Positions 1,348 to 25,753 of a DNA stretch of 38,086 nt are shown piece by piece. The notes under the pieces are model-generated. The model saw only the letters and a list, made by a program, of their open reading frames with translations. It did no database searches and had not been told where the DNA came from. Where the stretch lies: assembly GCA_013043985.1 (NCBI GenBank), contig JABEVJ010000323.1, positions 1 to 38,086 on the forward strand. Reading direction: 5' to 3'. The stretch's first letter is position 1. Each line of letters begins with the position of its first letter. The position numbers and the translations under genes were made by a program. Source of the stretch: Legionellales bacterium (GTDB lineage Bacteria; Pseudomonadota; Gammaproteobacteria; UBA1113).

Positions 1348-2937
1348 TTAATTTTCCATAATCATTGAATAAACCGAAATAAGCGGTGTATTTTTGGTAT
1401 AACCCGTCACCGTTGCTCGAAGCACACCCTCAGTATTGGCAGGCAGGGCGTCAATAATTTTACCTTTAGGCGAAATAACTGCAGTGATGCCATTATTATT
1501 GACGACTATCATCGGTCGTCCAGTTTCAAGCGCTCGCACTTGACTGATTTGTAATTGTTGTTCGGCAGCAATTGAGCCAGCAAACCAGCTATCATCACTA
1601 ATATTAATTAAAATATTGGCCTTATCCACTTGATACCAAATCAGCGAGGGGTAAGCTACTTCGTAACAAATGCTTGGACTAAACCACAAGCCATCAATAT
1701 CAAGCAGCGTCGATTTTTGCGTACCTGGTGTTAAATCCGACATCGGAATATTAAAAAAATTAATCAAGCCACGAAGCCAGTGCTGGAAAGGAAAGTATTC
1801 GCCAAAAGGAACCAGATGTCGTTTTTCATAACTTCCTTCTGACTGGCCTAAGACAAGCATCCCATTATAAAGCTTTTCACTGCTATCACTTAAAATGGTT
1901 CCAAGCAAGAGAGTACTTTGATGTGATAGGGCATTTTCACTGACTTGAGCCAGAAAATTAGGCACGTAATAGGTGGGGGTCGGCACGGAGCCTTCCGGCC
2001 AGACAATCAGGTTACGTCCTAACTCGGATTTTGTTAATCGCTGATAGGTAGCGAGGATTTGACTAAAATGCTGTGGATCCCATTTGATATCTTGGGTGAT
2101 ATTGCCTTGTATCAAGCTGACAGTTAGAGGCGAGGGGAGGGGCGTTGTCCATTTGATTGAGTCAATCGACGCGCCAATACCAAACAGCAAACCAAGCAAA
2201 AGAAAGCAGCCAATTTTTATACTCTTCGCACTTGAATTTTTGGCGTTGTTGCAAGCTCGCTCGGCATCGGTCATGTATTCGGTATACACTCCCTCGTCTC
2301 CCTCGCTTGCGCCTAGCCAAAAATCCAATCGCTTTGAGTATATTTTAGAATGGCTTGTCTTCATGCAAATCAAATAAATAAGTACTGAGCATAAGGCAGT
2401 TATCGTGCTGACACCATAAACACCTACCAAAGGAAAAAATCCTTGTAAAGGTGTGTTGATTTGGCTGTATCCGAGTAATACCCAAGGAAATCCACTGCCT
2501 ACCCAGCTTCGCAGCCATTCACCGAACAACCAAGTCAAGGGGAAAAAAACCAGCAGACGCCAAGTGGCTGGGGTCGGGGTCAGTAATCGAAAGAGAAACA
2601 GGCTTACTGTTGGAAAAAGAGCGAGTGTCGCTATAAAGAGGCCAGTCAAGAGCACCGCCAGAGCTGGGTTAGTTCCACCAAAGGTATGAATACTGATATA
2701 GACCCATGAGGCTGATATGCCAAAAAAACCGATCCCAAATAGCCAGCCATAAAGTGCAGCAGTGTATTTGGAGCCAGATAAAGCAAGCCAGAGTAATATA
2801 GCGGGAGCAATAAATGAAAAAAACGCTAAATTAAATGGAGCAAACCCAAGGGCAAGACTTGCGCCTGCCAGAAGAGCAATAATTAGGCTGATTGCTTGAG
2901 AAAGTTTGTAAAATGCTGTTTTAGAGATAGCTTTCAT
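1348..2937 (-). CDS. lnt: Apolipoprotein N-acyltransferase carrying an in-frame repeat-derived insertion
   Basis: It has multiple N-terminal hydrophobic segments followed by a nitrilase-like domain. The Lnt catalytic triad contexts VWPEGS, YEKRHLVPFGEY and SICYE are present. The start overlaps the upstream gene stop (TAATG). Confidence 0.9.
   Translation of the reverse strand: MKAISKTAFYKLSQAISLIIALLAGASLALGFAPFNLAFFSFIAPAILLWLALSGSKYTAALYGWLFGIGFFGISASWVYISIHTFGGTNPALAVLLTGLFIATLALFPTVSLFLFRLLTPTPATWRLLVFFPLTWLFGEWLRSWVGSGFPWVLLGYSQINTPLQGFFPLVGVYGVSTITALCSVLIYLICMKTSHSKIYSKRLDFWLGASEGDEGVYTEYMTDAERACNNAKNSSAKSIKIGCFLLLGLLFGIGASIDSIKWTTPLPSPLTVSLIQGNITQDIKWDPQHFSQILATYQRLTKSELGRNLIVWPEGSVPTPTYYVPNFLAQVSENALSHQSTLLLGTILSDSSEKLYNGMLVLGQSEGSYEKRHLVPFGEYFPFQHWLRGLINFFNIPMSDLTPGTQKSTLLDIDGLWFSPSICYEVAYPSLIWYQVDKANILINISDDSWFAGSIAAEQQLQISQVRALETGRPMIVVNNNGITAVISPKGKIIDALPANTEGVLRATVTGYTKNTPLISVYSMIMEN
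2218..2342. mobile_element. Family-2 palindromic MITE-like element inserted in frame inside lnt
   Basis: The termini tatactcttcgcacttgaattt ... gctttgagtata and the interior align with the copies at 4108-4231, 9286-9412 and 25627-25753. Element plus one TA is 123 bp, which is 41 codons. Confidence 0.8.
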
Positions 2938-4103
2938 TAAGCATTTATCTTTCCGAGTGCATACGCGAGATCATCCTGTAAATCGTGTACATCCTCAATA
3001 CCCACGGAAAGACGCGCTAAGCCATCACTTATCCCAAGCAGAGCGCGTTGCTCAGGCGGAATAGAGGCATGGGTCATAATTGCAGGATGCTCTATCAGAC
3101 TTTCAACGCCGCCCAAGCTTTCTGCCAGGGCAAACAGATGGCAGTTTTCGAGAAAAATACGTGATGGCTCAAGACCACCTTTAATCACGATGCTGATCAT
3201 GCCACCAAAACCTTTCATTTGAGTAGTCGCTAACTCATGTTGCGGATGGCTTTTTAATCCGGGATAAATGACACGCTCAATAGCAGGATGAGACTCAAGC
3301 CAGGTAGCCAGTTTCATTGCTGACTCACAATGACGTTCCATCCGCAATGCCAGTGTTTTTACTCCCCGCAGTGCTAAAAAGCTATCAAATGGGCCTGCAA
3401 TTGCACCAATGGCATTTTGCAGAAAAGCCATTTTTTCAATTAATGCATCGTTGTCATTAACGATCACAATCCCGTTAACAACATCAGAGTGGCCATTAAT
3501 ATATTTTGTTGCGGAGTGTACGACAATATCGCAACCATAAGTCAATGGTTGTTGCAACAAGGGGGTGGCAAAGGTATTGTCAGCCACAACAAGCAGATTG
3601 TGTTTTTTGGCAATGGCAACAATAGCTTTGAGATCAGCCAGCTTTAACATGGGATTGGTTGGTGTTTCAACCCAGAGCATACGGGTTTTTGGGGTAATCG
3701 CTGCTTCAATTTGACCGATATCGGTCATGTCAATGAAGGAAAAATGGAGACCTGCTGAGCGTCTTCGTACTTTGTCAAATAACCGAAAAGTACCGCCATA
3801 GAGATCGTCCATCGCTATCACATGATCACCATGATCGAGTAATTCCAGGATCGTGGAAATAGCGGCCATACCCGATGCAAAAGCAAAACCAGCTTTACCT
3901 TGCTCAAGCTCAGCTATACAGCGTTCATAAGCAAAGCGGGTGGGGTTTTGAGTGCGGGAATATTCATAGCCTTTATGAACCCCGGGACTTGATTGTACGT
4001 AGGTTGAGGTTGCATAGATAGGTTGCATGACCGCGCCAGTTGTCGGATCAGGTGTTTGTCCTGCGTGGATAACTTGGGTTGCAATGTGATAGGGTTTTGT
4101 CAT
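2937..4103 (-). CDS. Cys/Met-metabolism PLP-dependent enzyme (cystathionine gamma-lyase / gamma-synthase / beta-lyase family)
   Basis: The PLP-lysine context HSATKYINGHSD and the family-typical N-terminus TQVIHAGQTPDPTTGAV are present. I chose the start at MTKPYH (4101-4103 rc) because the 20 upstream codons read into a MITE and GAGGAG lies 6 nt upstream of this ATG. Confidence 0.85.
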   Translation of the reverse strand: MTKPYHIATQVIHAGQTPDPTTGAVMQPIYATSTYVQSSPGVHKGYEYSRTQNPTRFAYERCIAELEQGKAGFAFASGMAAISTILELLDHGDHVIAMDDLYGGTFRLFDKVRRRSAGLHFSFIDMTDIGQIEAAITPKTRMLWVETPTNPMLKLADLKAIVAIAKKHNLLVVADNTFATPLLQQPLTYGCDIVVHSATKYINGHSDVVNGIVIVNDNDALIEKMAFLQNAIGAIAGPFDSFLALRGVKTLALRMERHCESAMKLATWLESHPAIERVIYPGLKSHPQHELATTQMKGFGGMISIVIKGGLEPSRIFLENCHLFALAESLGGVESLIEHPAIMTHASIPPEQRALLGISDGLARLSVGIEDVHDLQDDLAYALGKINA

Positions 4104-4107
4104 GTGA

Positions 4108-4231
4108 TACTCCTCGGAATTGAGTCTGCGGCGTTGTTGCTTTTGACGACTCGCCATCGTCATGTATTATGTATACACTCCTCGGTTCGTGTCAAAAGCG
4201 CCTAGCCGCAAACTCAATTCCAAGGAGTATA
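4108..4231. repeat. Family-2 palindromic MITE-like element (opposite orientation to 9286-9412)
   Basis: atactcctcggaattgagtctgcgg ... ccgcaaactcaattccaaggagtata. The reverse complement matches the left half of 9286-9412. An 18-bp fragment, gagtctgcggcgttgttg (4122-4139), is repeated at 4246-4263 next to the udk stop. Confidence 0.8.
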
Positions 4232-4267
4232 AACTCGATGTAGGTGAGTCTGCGGCGTTGTTGTTTT

Positions 4268-8367: not shown

Positions 8368-9282
8368 ATGGGAAATAAAGTGAACGTTCAAGAAATAACG
8401 AATGAATTATACACGATTCGCGATATGGTGCGCTGTGCTGCAAGTCTTTTTGCAGCTAATCCGCTGTTTTATGGTCACGGTACTGACAATCCCTGGGATG
8501 AAGCAACCAGCCTGGTGATGCAAACACTGCAGCTTGATTACACATACTACCATGAAGTGCTGGATGCCAGGTTAACCCATACCGAGCGCCTAAACATTGC
8601 AAACCTGATTCAAAAAAGAGTAGAGCAACGTATTCCGGTTCCTTATTTGACACATCAAGCACAGTTTGCGGGCTTGACCTTTTATGTTGATGAACGCGTA
8701 CTGATTCCTCGCTCCCCGCTTGCTGAGTTGATTGAAGAGCAATTTTCACCCTGGATTGATCCCACTACAATAGAAAATGTTCTCGATCTTTGCACTGGCA
8801 GTGGCTGTATTGCTCTGGCAATTCATGCTTATCTTCCTAACCCCTATACTCAGATTGATGCCGTGGATATTTCGCCCGAAGCGTTGGCAGTTGCCAAAAT
8901 TAATGTTGAGAAACAGGGGGCAACCGAGCAGGTTCATTTGATACAGTCTAATTTGTTTGAACAGTTGCAGGGTCGGCGATATGATCTGATCGTGAGCAAT
9001 CCACCTTATGTTGATGCTGCTGAAATGCAGGCCTTACCTCAGGAATTCCGACATGAACCTGAGCTTGCTCTGGCAGCGGGATTAGATGGGCTTGCTATTG
9101 TCCATGAAATATTGCAAAAAGCGCCTGATCACTTGACAGAAAATGGATTGCTGATTGTCGAAGTGGGTGCGAGTGCGCCAGCTCTGATTCAGGCTTATCC
9201 ACACTTACCCTTTATCTGGCTTGAGTTTGAACGCGGTGGTGAGGGGGTGTTTGTATTACGGTATGAGGATTTTGTTAATTAG
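8368..9282 (+). CDS. prmB: Ribosomal protein L3 glutamine N5-methyltransferase
   Basis: SAM-binding DLCTGSGCIA, the NPPY motif (SNPPYV), and an N-terminus similar to E. coli PrmB (NELYTIRDMVR). It sits immediately upstream of aroC. Confidence 0.85.
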   Translation: MGNKVNVQEITNELYTIRDMVRCAASLFAANPLFYGHGTDNPWDEATSLVMQTLQLDYTYYHEVLDARLTHTERLNIANLIQKRVEQRIPVPYLTHQAQFAGLTFYVDERVLIPRSPLAELIEEQFSPWIDPTTIENVLDLCTGSGCIALAIHAYLPNPYTQIDAVDISPEALAVAKINVEKQGATEQVHLIQSNLFEQLQGRRYDLIVSNPPYVDAAEMQALPQEFRHEPELALAAGLDGLAIVHEILQKAPDHLTENGLLIVEVGASAPALIQAYPHLPFIWLEFERGGEGVFVLRYEDFVN

Positions 9283-9285
9283 GTA

Positions 9286-9412
9286 TATACTCCTTGCAAT
9301 TGAATTTGCGGCTAGGCGCGGTTGACACGAGTCGCCGGAGTGTACTGCCTGTACATGAGGACGGCGAGCGGTCAACCGCAACAACGCTGCAGATTTAATT
9401 GCGGGGAGTATA
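9286..9412. repeat. Family-2 palindromic MITE-like element filling the prmB-aroC spacer
   Basis: The imperfect TIRs are tatactccttgcaattgaatttgcgg and ctgcagatttaattgcggggagtata. The interior is itself palindromic (ggttgacacgagtcgccggagtgtac / gtacatgaggacggcgagcggtcaacc). The element ends 1 nt before the aroC ATG. Confidence 0.85.
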
Positions 9413-9413
9413 A

Positions 9414-10484
9414 ATGGCGGGAAATACGTTTGGGCAAGTTTTCCGTGTCACCACCTTTGGTGAAAGTCATGGCTCGGCATTGGGTGCAATTATTGATGGT
9501 TGTCCACCGGGTATGAAATTGACTGAAGCGGATATTATGGTGGAGCTTGAAAGGCGCAAAACGGGCACGTCTCCCTTCACCTCGCAACGTAAAGAGCCTG
9601 ATGCTGTACAAATTTTATCTGGCGTTTTCAATGGCGTGACAACGGGCACTCCAATTGGTTTAGTTATTCGAAATGAGGATAATAAATCAAAGGATTATGA
9701 AGCGATTAGCGCACAGTTTCGACCGGGTCACGCAGATTATACCTATTTACAAAAATATGGTGTAAGAGATTTTCGAGGCGGCGGCAGGGCATCGGCCAGA
9801 GAAACCGTTATGCGCGTTGCCGCGGGTGCCATCGCCAAAAAATACTTGCGGGAGGTCGTTGGCATAACGATACGAGGTTGTTTAATACAAATGGGGCACG
9901 TATCCGTGCCTATTCTTGATTGGCAAGAAACTGAGAAAAATCCGTTTTTTGTTGCTAATGCTGAAAAAGTTCCTGAGTTAGAATTACTGATTCAAGCAAC
10001 ACGCAAGGCTGGCGATTCCATTGGAGCATTGATTCAGATTGAAGCGCATCAGGTTCCCGTTGGTCTGGGCGAGCCAGTATTTGATAAACTCAATGCTAGT
10101 ATTGCTCATGCGATGATGAGTATTAATGCGGTTAAAGCAGTCGAAATAGGGGATGGTTTAAGTTGTGTGACACAACCTGGCTCTGCCTTTCGAGATGAAA
10201 TGACCCGTGAAGGATTTTTATCCAATCATGCAGGCGGGATATTGGGCGGCATTTCCAACGGAGAGCCAATTATTGTTAAAGTTGCGTTTAAACCTACTCC
10301 AAGTATTATCCAACCAGGGCGCTCACTCAATACAAGTGGTGACGAAGTGACGGTGGTTACAAAAGGACGTCACGATCCGTGCGTGGGAATTCGTGGTGTG
10401 CCAATTGCTGAGGCAATGCTGGCACTGGTGTTGATGGATCACTATTTAAGAAATTTACCTAATCTCAGGAGAACAAATGAATAA
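9414..10484 (+). CDS. aroC: Chorismate synthase
   Basis: The N-terminus [20 protein letters not shown] and the [10 protein letters not shown] and RHDPCV motifs are typical of AroC. Confidence 0.92.
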
Positions 10485-11505
10485 ATTAATTAGTGTGGCT
10501 ATTCTAGGGGCTTCAGGCGTTGTCGGTGAAGCCGCAATTGAAATTCTTCAACAACGTAACTTTCCAGTGGATAAATTATATTTACTTGCCAGTGAACGCT
10601 CCAGTGGTTCAACAGCGATGTTTAAAGGCCGCCCTATCCTAATTGAAAACGTAGCTGATTTTGATTTTAGCAAAGTGAAAATCGCTATTTTTTCTGCGGG
10701 CGCAGAAACTTCTGCGCAGTACGCTCCTAAAGCTGTCAAGGCAGGTTGTATTGTTATTGATAATACTTCGCAATTTCGCTATGACGAAGATGTTCCTCTT
10801 GTTGTTTCAGAGGTTAATCCTGAGATGATTCCCCAGGGTATTAAACGTGGCATTATTGCCAACCCAAATTGCAGTACGATGCAGATGGTCGTGGCACTCA
10901 AGCCAATTTATGATGCTGTTGGAATTACGCGTATTAATTTTGCCAGCTATCAATCGGTTTCGGGAGCAGGGCGCGAAGCACTGGAAGAATTAGCCCAGCA
11001 GACCAGTGGTATGTTAACGGGTAATAAACATAAAGCAAAAGTTTTCCCTGTGCAAATTGCCTTTAATGTGATTCCCCATATTGATGTATTTGAAGAGAAT
11101 GGTTATACACGGGAAGAAATGAAGGTAGTGTGGGAAACCCGAAAAATTTTCAATGATAATGAAATTATGGTTAATCCGACGGCGGTACGAGTGCCTGTTT
11201 TTTTTGGGCATTCTGAAGCGGTGCATATTGAAACACGTGAAAAAATTACGGTTGAACAAGCTCGGCAGCTATTAAAAAACGCACCCGGTGTGGTGCTGGT
11301 TGATGAAAGAGCAGCCAAGGGTTATCCAACACCTGTGACTCATGCCGCCATGCAAGATGGGGTATTTGTCGGGCGTTTGCGCGAGGATATTTCTCATCCA
11401 CGCGGTCTGGATATGTGGATTGTCTCTGACAATGTGCGCAAAGGGGCGGCACTGAATGCTGTGCAGATTGCAGAACAGTGTGTGAAGTTACTTTTGGCTG
11501 AGTAA
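10477..11505 (+). CDS. asd: Aspartate-semialdehyde dehydrogenase (short, about 340-aa type)
   Basis: Rossmann N-terminus ILGASGVVG, active-site Cys context IANPNCST, and His context [11 protein letters not shown]. It overlaps the aroC stop by 8 nt. Confidence 0.8.
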
Positions 11506-25626: not shown

Positions 25627-25753
25627 TATACCCTCAAGATTGCATTTGCGGCTAGATGCGGTTGACTCGGGCCACCGGAATGTACACACAAGTACATGAG
25701 GATGACGAGACGTCAATCGCAACCACACAGCAGATTCAATATCGAGGGGTATA
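25627..25753. repeat. Family-2 palindromic MITE-like element in the nusA-infB spacer
   Basis: tataccctcaagattgcatttgcggctagatgcggttgactcgggccaccggaatgtac ... gtacatgaggatgacgagacgtcaatcgcaaccacacagcagattcaatatcgaggggtata. It is collinear with 9286-9412 and, at 127 bp, the same length. Confidence 0.85.

Follow-up and report, generated by a model that had tools for sequence, protein, structure and literature searches.

A MITE end of the ERIC superfamily as the probable Shine-Dalgarno sequence of aroC and of further genes in a Legionellales bacterium

In a 38,086-nt contig of a Legionellales bacterium (assembly GCA_013043985.1, contig JABEVJ010000323.1; hereafter the window), the spacer between prmB and aroC is filled by a palindromic MITE whose right end probably provides aroC with its Shine-Dalgarno (SD) sequence. 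The explanation that we favour, with a probability of about 0.7, is that the end of a MITE of the ERIC superfamily replaced the native SD of aroC, and that the same happened at no fewer than 20 genes of this genome. The anatomy of the spacer, the enrichment of element ends at start codons, the orientation rule, the native-like spacing of the donated SDs, the empty sites in a congener and the retention of right arms are direct observations; from them we infer that ribosomes use the GGAG at 9405-9408.

The prmB-aroC spacer and its repeat family

The gene order prmB-aroC is kept in 16 relatives, and prmB scores 411.6 bits against the NCBIfam profile TIGR03533 for the L3 Gln methyltransferase (cut-off 229.7). 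As asd overlaps aroC by 8 nt, the three genes form a tight prmB-aroC-asd operon. The element between the first two (Table 1) has TATACTCC as its left terminus and GGGGAGTATA as its right terminus, and a single A at 9413 separates it from the aroC ATG (9414-9416). A first-pass annotation, made from the sequence letters alone, had placed a 127-bp element 3 nt past the prmB stop and 1 nt ahead of the aroC ATG, which is correct to the base, and had pointed to the GGAG that the terminus sets 5 nt upstream of the start codon, which is seen at 9405-9408. This distance falls inside the range of native GGAG-to-ATG spacings, 5-10 nt. The GGAG/GAGGAG core is complementary to the 3' end of 16S rRNA, which we take to be the anti-SD of this organism as in established knowledge. 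As for the possibility that aroC translation starts elsewhere, the N-terminus MAGNTFGQ matches the first residues of AroC from 16 relatives and the chorismate synthase profiles start at AroC residue 10-11; on these alignments, the start at 9414 is secure. The leftover GTA of the original spacer forms with the prmB stop codon the sequence TAGGTA, which by its letters is the displaced, weakly SD-like native signal.

Table 1. Features of the prmB-aroC region and other copies of the repeat family in the window
Feature	Positions	Strand	Remarks	Basis
prmB (50S protein L3 N5-glutamine methyltransferase)	8368-9282	+	stop codon TAG at 9280-9282	ORF list
leftover of the original spacer	9283-9285	+	GTA	sequence
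full-length forward MITE	9286-9412	+	127 bp; GAGGAGTATA-terminus subfamily; TA at each end	
left arm of the palindrome	9286-9312	+	CTCC at 9290-9293, predicted to pair with the SD	fold, alignment of 29 copies
right arm of the palindrome	9386-9412	+	arm kept at gene starts elsewhere in the genome	
GGAG, inferred SD of aroC	9405-9408	+	followed by TATAA (5 nt) before the ATG	
aroC (chorismate synthase)	9414-10484	+		ORF list, alignment with relatives, profiles
asd	10477-11505	+	3' of aroC, 8-nt overlap	
second forward copy	4106-4231	-	right end GAGGAGTATC, 2 nt ahead of an ATG	
cystathionine gamma-synthase-like gene	2937-4103	-	downstream of the copy at 4106-4231	
copy with GGAG-less termini	2218-2342	-	other subfamily; read through in frame inside a gene	
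GGGGTATA-subfamily copy	25627-25753	+	34 nt to the next long ORF; no SD donated	

The genome is a draft of 2.7 Mb in 337 contigs with 40% G+C, and copies at contig ends are missed because of this fragmentation. The element at 9286-9412 has 26 BLAST matches in it, and iterated nhmmer searches bring the family to about 61 loci on many contigs, 29 of them full length. Full copies measure 125-128 bp and in 25 of the 29 have TATA...TATA ends, that is TATAC...GTATA termini with TA on both sides. Their termini define the subfamilies GAGGAGTATA, GAGGGGTATA and GAAGAGTATA/TTTGAGTATA, which differ in stem sequence and share the hairpin; compensatory changes are found at 18 of the 36 pairs of the consensus structure. 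The length of 127 bp, the non-coding sequence and the terminal inverted repeats with arms of about 27 nt are features of MITEs. The TA at both ends of the element is indistinguishable from its termini, and the empty sites of the nearest sequenced congener are too diverged for a base-exact comparison.

Several copies are arranged in unusual ways. Between the copy at 4106-4231 and the upstream stop codon lies a degenerate second right arm (ACAACAACGCCGCAGACTCA...CGAG; 4232-4267, minus strand); judging from the sequence, this SD-to-ATG spacer apparently took two insertions, unless the arm was duplicated. GGAG-less copies lie in frame inside long ORFs in the window (2218-2342, minus strand) and on contigs C255, C146, C239 and C106, always in forward orientation and in one frame; four are of the GAAGAGTATA type and that on C146 is of the GGGGTATA type. 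Head-to-tail tandem arrays joined at the terminal TA comprise two units in this genome (C265:2513-2763) and three in a Berkiella MAG (L099:2749-3133).

The element, labelled 'family 2' in the first-pass annotation, is not an orphan: profile evidence and intermediates place it within the ERIC superfamily, as a distant member. A genuine ERIC copy of E. coli, retrieved via the two classical ERIC primer sequences, is 127 bp long with TATACTC...GAGTATA termini and aligns end to end with the family profile, but weakly (6.1 bits). As a single nhmmer query against the Legionellales genome it returned family copies as four of its five top hits, only at E values of 0.8-4.7. The same query hits copies in Berkiella-type MAGs at an E value of about 1e-7, and these copies match the family profile at about 1e-11. 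Since a blastn search of the element against 5,426 E. coli genomes found no match, the link to ERIC required the profile and the intermediate sequences, and the element is classed as ERIC-like, not as ERIC proper. An Rfam scan of positions 9200-9500 at E <= 1 gave no match.

As for its distribution, the best public matches of the element are in MAGs of Legionellaceae, Berkiella and Coxiellaceae. When one genome per species was scanned with a 21-base core pattern, the core turned up in records of Berkiella, Coxiellaceae, Legionellaceae, Legionellales, Francisella, Pseudomonas and beta-proteobacteria. Weaker, core-only matches occur in Clostridia and Melainabacteria MAGs (L053, L055, L056, L058, L065 and L087; profile positions 13-114 or 26-109), and such matches in records labelled as distant phyla could mean that an ERIC-like element has spread horizontally or that contigs were mis-binned. 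The SD-bearing right arm was not found in metagenome contigs with a strict pattern, and none of the six hits of a looser pattern matched the family profile.

Right ends at start codons

For the genome-wide survey, genes were called with a purpose-written simple caller that combines dicodon scores with an iterated start model (2,335 genes, 88.7% of the genome). The null set consisted of 27,232 intergenic TA dinucleotides outside elements, of which 4.15% lie 0-6 nt and 2.5% lie 1-4 nt before a predicted start, the starts of this null model coming from a crude caller that rewards SD motifs. By the terms of the first-pass annotation, its claim would fail without an excess of element ends within SD distance of start codons, and the excess is large: of the 41 intact right ends, 20 are followed after 0-6 nt by the ATG of a long ORF, versus the 4.15% expected from the TA sites (binomial p = 3e-17). 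At left ends the count is one in 33, the one being that of an 89-bp copy whose orientation is ambiguous (Fisher p = 6.5e-6 against right ends). Adjacency to a start further depends on the terminus, as 17 of the 20 right ends with GGAG adjoin one, versus 3 of the 21 without it. The element-derived GGAG lies 4-9 nt from the ATG, most often 6-7 nt, as it does in 449 native genes with an upstream GGAG; an SD match of at least 4 nt precedes 51% of the genes in this genome.

Judging from NCBIfam equivalog profiles, the start codons that adjoin element ends are the real ones. The profiles start between residues 1 and 10 for HPr, AroC, UppS, mevalonate kinase, GltX, TrkH and RecN, and likewise for YchF, Adk, Lgt, YfcH, a cystathionine gamma-synthase-like (MetB-like) protein, a GadC-like antiporter and biotin carboxylase. 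The donation of SDs by element ends is thus well supported across the genome at the level of sequence, the genes concerned including adk, gltX, recN, ychF, uppS, trkH, lgt and ptsH. We estimate that at least 20 genes, probably 25-30, have an element-derived ribosome-binding site.

Part of the family has been reduced to the right arm. Loci with a right arm only number 12, compared with four with a left arm only, and 11 of the 12 adjoin a start codon. These fragments are cut at varied internal points, and all keep ...GCAGATTCAATTNCGAGGAGTATA followed by 0-5 nt and the ATG. Still shorter remnants of 16-28 nt (AATTNCGAGGAGTATA) precede more genes, for example on contigs C129, C159, C219, C237 and C313. 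Such a decay series, from the full hairpin to a bare SD, is what one would predict for genes that have come to depend on the donated site. On contig C75 (829-2624), both ychF and adk have a ribosome site that derives from the element, and the 37-nt right-arm remnant ahead of adk starts directly after the ychF stop codon.

Related genomes provide empty sites and natural controls. In the nearest sequenced congener (G001), the prmB-aroC site is empty, with a 10-nt spacer (TAA-GGTACTCAAC-ATG) that reads TAAGGTACTCAAC-ATG at the aroC start, and the window minus the element and one TA would read TAG-GTATAA-ATG. The element thus fills the spacer exactly because the original spacer had only 6-10 nt. 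The adk, gltX and uppS sites are also without the element in G001 and other relatives. The comparison with relatives lacking the insertion, which the first-pass annotation had suggested as a way of seeing which SD they use, returned a weak native SD for prmB-aroC and, at the empty adk, gltX and uppS sites, mostly ordinary SDs (e.g. AGGAGA) at a normal distance; gltX of G001 has none upstream. BLAST searches of the element in 40 relatives found matches only in G001, whose three copies have no GGAG and no right end at a start. Among about 60 full-length GGAG-less relatives in other genomes (mostly from one MAG, with GGGTATA termini), two lie within 6 nt of a possible start.

In G011, a genome of another genus of the family, the prmB-aroC spacer contains a different palindromic repeat (L003:1353-1500). 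It is present there in 32 copies, its hairpin is calculated at -69 kcal/mol, and it has no SD and ends ~25 nt before the ATG, thereby leaving the native GAAGAGGG in place. It is an independent landing in this spacer.

The claim that the two termini read GGAGTATA outward held, but the proposal built on it, that either orientation would serve a downstream gene, did not, with 20 right ends at starts against a single, ambiguous left end. As both termini carry GGAG, the supply of an SD cannot by itself explain this bias in orientation. The asymmetry suggests that the RNA has a strand-specific role, that a standby or enhancer site is present, or that the insertion target is asymmetric. A candidate for the second of these is CAACAAC, a conserved unpaired motif of the right arm (9378-9384 in the window), ~30 nt from the end and opposite CUAGG in an internal loop, which is kept by most right-arm fragments at gene starts; on the modelled structure, it may act as a standby site or bind a protein.

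As for the third, the transposase might target TA dinucleotides beside sequences that resemble the element's own end, the purine-rich GAGG-TA being a natural ribosome-binding site, and insert in a fixed orientation, which would make the adjacency to starts functionally uninformative. Some insertions indeed lie at the terminal TA of an older copy or a right-arm remnant (C265, 4232-4267 in the window, and C146), which hints at a preference for such sequences; seven of the ten best-preserved, hence youngest, copies are already at starts, and an asymmetric target would account for the orientation rule as well. Left unexplained by such targeting are the excess of right-arm-only over left-arm-only remnants, with 11 of the 12 at starts, and the survival of the last 16-28 nt in copies that have otherwise decayed; moreover, an SD-like triplet is present in the left flank in just five of nine cases read by eye. 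Insertion-site preference is therefore likely to contribute, but it is unlikely as the sole cause, and we regard it as quite improbable in that form. The enrichment at starts is probably a mixture of targeting and selection.

The hairpin and access to the ribosome site

The first-pass annotation had further proposed that the whole element folds into a long hairpin that sequesters the SD, and structure prediction agrees. The RNA of the prmB-aroC spacer is predicted to form one long hairpin of -79.7 kcal/mol (z = -9.2 versus shuffled sequences), with the GGAG paired to CUCC at the base of the stem, where ~27 base pairs are nearly perfect. Its accessibility was expressed as the cost of forcing the ribosome-docking window (-13 to +12) open, with 300 random genes as background. 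This cost is 25.2 kcal/mol for aroC, versus a genome median of 7.3 kcal/mol and a 95th percentile of 13.1 kcal/mol. Full-length copies adjoining a start (n = 9) cost 15-25 kcal/mol, with a median of 18.1, and shortened copies (n = 11) have a median of 6.7 kcal/mol. Full copies are thus predicted to mask the ribosome site and shortened ones to leave it free. The possibility of an RNA thermometer was rejected, the stem, at about -75 kcal/mol, being far too stable for physiological melting.

How the site of a full copy might be freed was modelled with a ribosome terminating on prmB that keeps the RNA single-stranded up to k nt past the stop codon. The opening cost for aroC then falls from 30.2 kcal/mol (k = 0) to 20.9 (k = 9), 15.7 (k = 12) and 9.9 kcal/mol (k = 15). 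The footprint of a ribosome extends roughly 9-12 nt past the A-site codon, so that coupling to prmB could lift the masking in part, not in full. The left end of the element lies 3-7 nt past the upstream stop in five of the seven resolved full-length forward copies. By analogy with related repeats, cleavage of the stem by RNase III or RNase E could be the other obvious route to a free SD.

The same features would also suit a tolerated passenger, in which the hairpin merely keeps the prmB stop and the aroC start spatially adjacent, aroC is translated by reinitiation or from the native TAGGTA, and the GGAG is incidental, belonging to transposase recognition. The short ancestral spacer with its weak SD, the burial of the new SD in the predicted fold and the closeness of left ends to upstream stops are all in line with such an arrangement, and hairpins that bridge a split ribosome site in phage T4 genes 38 and 25 offer a precedent. 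Given so short an original spacer, aroC may indeed be translated by termination-reinitiation without any SD. A mere passenger, however, does not explain why adjacency to starts is specific to the GGAG subfamily and rare or absent in the GGAG-less controls, why right arms without a hairpin are kept at 11 starts, or why the spacing matches the native SD optimum, and several of the donated sites are at genes without a close upstream stop codon. We consider this reading improbable.

Another alternative places the main role at the level of the RNA, as a processing or stability element that uncouples or tunes the prmB and aroC mRNA, with SD donation secondary. Orientation-dependent RNase E effects of ERIC and cleavage of Correia elements by RNase III have been reported (PMC2229807, PMC10969869). 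In the present family, forward-strand RNA is more stable than reverse-strand RNA in 27 of 28 copies (mean -64 versus -53 kcal/mol) and has twice as many G-U pairs, at conserved positions; the compensatory changes in half of the stem pairs and the nearly perfect stem base also fit. Compensatory changes are, nevertheless, to be expected anyway since a palindromic transposon end needs matching arms, and a role in RNA processing, although compatible with SD donation, does not predict the adjacency to start codons. We consider it rather unlikely as the foremost role.

As for transcription, Correia elements and many IS ends create promoters (PMC3184786), and the element might similarly have brought aroC a promoter or a terminator. 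A consensus scan of 9286-9412 found no promoter-like or terminator-like site on either strand and there is no T-run after the hairpin, on which grounds this role was rejected; its likelihood is very small.

The course of events that we propose for SD replacement is as follows. After the split from the nearest sequenced congener, a non-autonomous MITE would have entered a TA of the 6-10-nt, translationally coupled prmB-aroC spacer. Its right terminus would have set a canonical SD core 5 nt before the aroC ATG in place of the displaced native signal. In full-length copies, this SD would be held at the base of the hairpin by pairing with the CUCC of the left terminus, and translation of aroC would require the ribosome that ends at the prmB stop 3 nt upstream to melt the stem base, or an RNase to cut the stem. 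Loss of the left arm over time would free the SD. The concentration of the family at starts would probably result from a preference for TA beside sequences resembling ribosome-binding sites, together with selection for insertions that kept downstream translation intact.

Relation to known repeats and significance

The closest likeness is to ERIC (IRU, RU-1): both are imperfect palindromes of 127 bp with TATACTC...GAGTATA-type termini flanked by TA, and both are co-transcribed with neighbouring genes and biased in orientation relative to them. The present host, however, lies outside the Enterobacteriaceae and Vibrionaceae, the range given for ERIC in a 2024 review (PMC10969869), and here the termini are a canonical SD (GAGGAG), with nearly all such ends at starts, for which the reviews report no counterpart in ERIC. 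The Correia (NEMIS, CREE) elements of Neisseria are likewise TA-flanked palindromic MITEs close to genes; they alter the expression of neighbouring genes, and their long RNA stems are substrates of RNase III (PMC10969869). Unlike the present family, with which they share no sequence similarity, they donate promoters and IHF sites, not ribosome-binding sites.

The nearest precedents for SD supply are the REP2 repeats of Neisseria and the IR repeats of Borrelia, which are dispersed immediately upstream of genes and carry a ribosome-binding site together with a promoter and an ATG, and which are not MITEs (PMC3184786). REP2 lacks terminal inverted repeats and brings a promoter and an ATG in addition, whereas here the ATG is that of the gene itself and only the SD comes from a transposon terminus. 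The palindromic elements of Rickettsia are also a palindromic MITE family co-opted into host gene expression, and the GGAG-less subfamily described here is read through in frame inside genes, as they are; what they add is coding sequence and not signals for translation initiation. From RNA phages and operons, translational coupling is known in which a hairpin masks the downstream ribosome site. The prmB stop, 3 nt from the SD-pairing arm, and the fall in modelled exposure cost when this arm is opened recall these systems, the difference being that the masking hairpin came ready-made on a mobile element and that the coupling is predicted.

The effects of MITEs listed in the literature are promoters, IHF sites, RNase sites, ORF fusions and insertional inactivation (PMC10969869, PMC2229807, PMC3184786). 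The words 'Shine', 'ribosome' and 'RBS' are absent from the 2024 MITE review (PMC10969869), and a full-text literature search found no paper on a MITE family that systematically supplies SDs. Bacterial MITEs are thus known to contribute promoters, RNase sites, IHF sites and coding segments, and a systematic supply of ribosome-binding sites apparently has not been reported. The kinship established here also extends the ERIC superfamily well beyond enteric bacteria.

It is tempting to speculate further that the GGAG subfamily is a mobile translation-initiation module that homes, in one orientation, between ribosome-binding sites and ATG codons and replaces the native site, its hairpin making translation conditional on an upstream ribosome or an RNase until loss of the left arm fixes the new site. 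We offer this extension tentatively, as a possibility that is doubtful in its full form; if true, translational control would have been rewired in over 1% of the genes, including many essential ones. The proposed replacement of native SDs by element ends already offers a model that can be tested, in which a mobile element delivers hairpin-mediated translational coupling. Essential genes such as adk, gltX, uppS, lgt, aroC and recN apparently rely on the end of a transposon to initiate translation, and the decay series, together with the natural controls in related genomes, makes the family a clear case of the domestication of selfish DNA.
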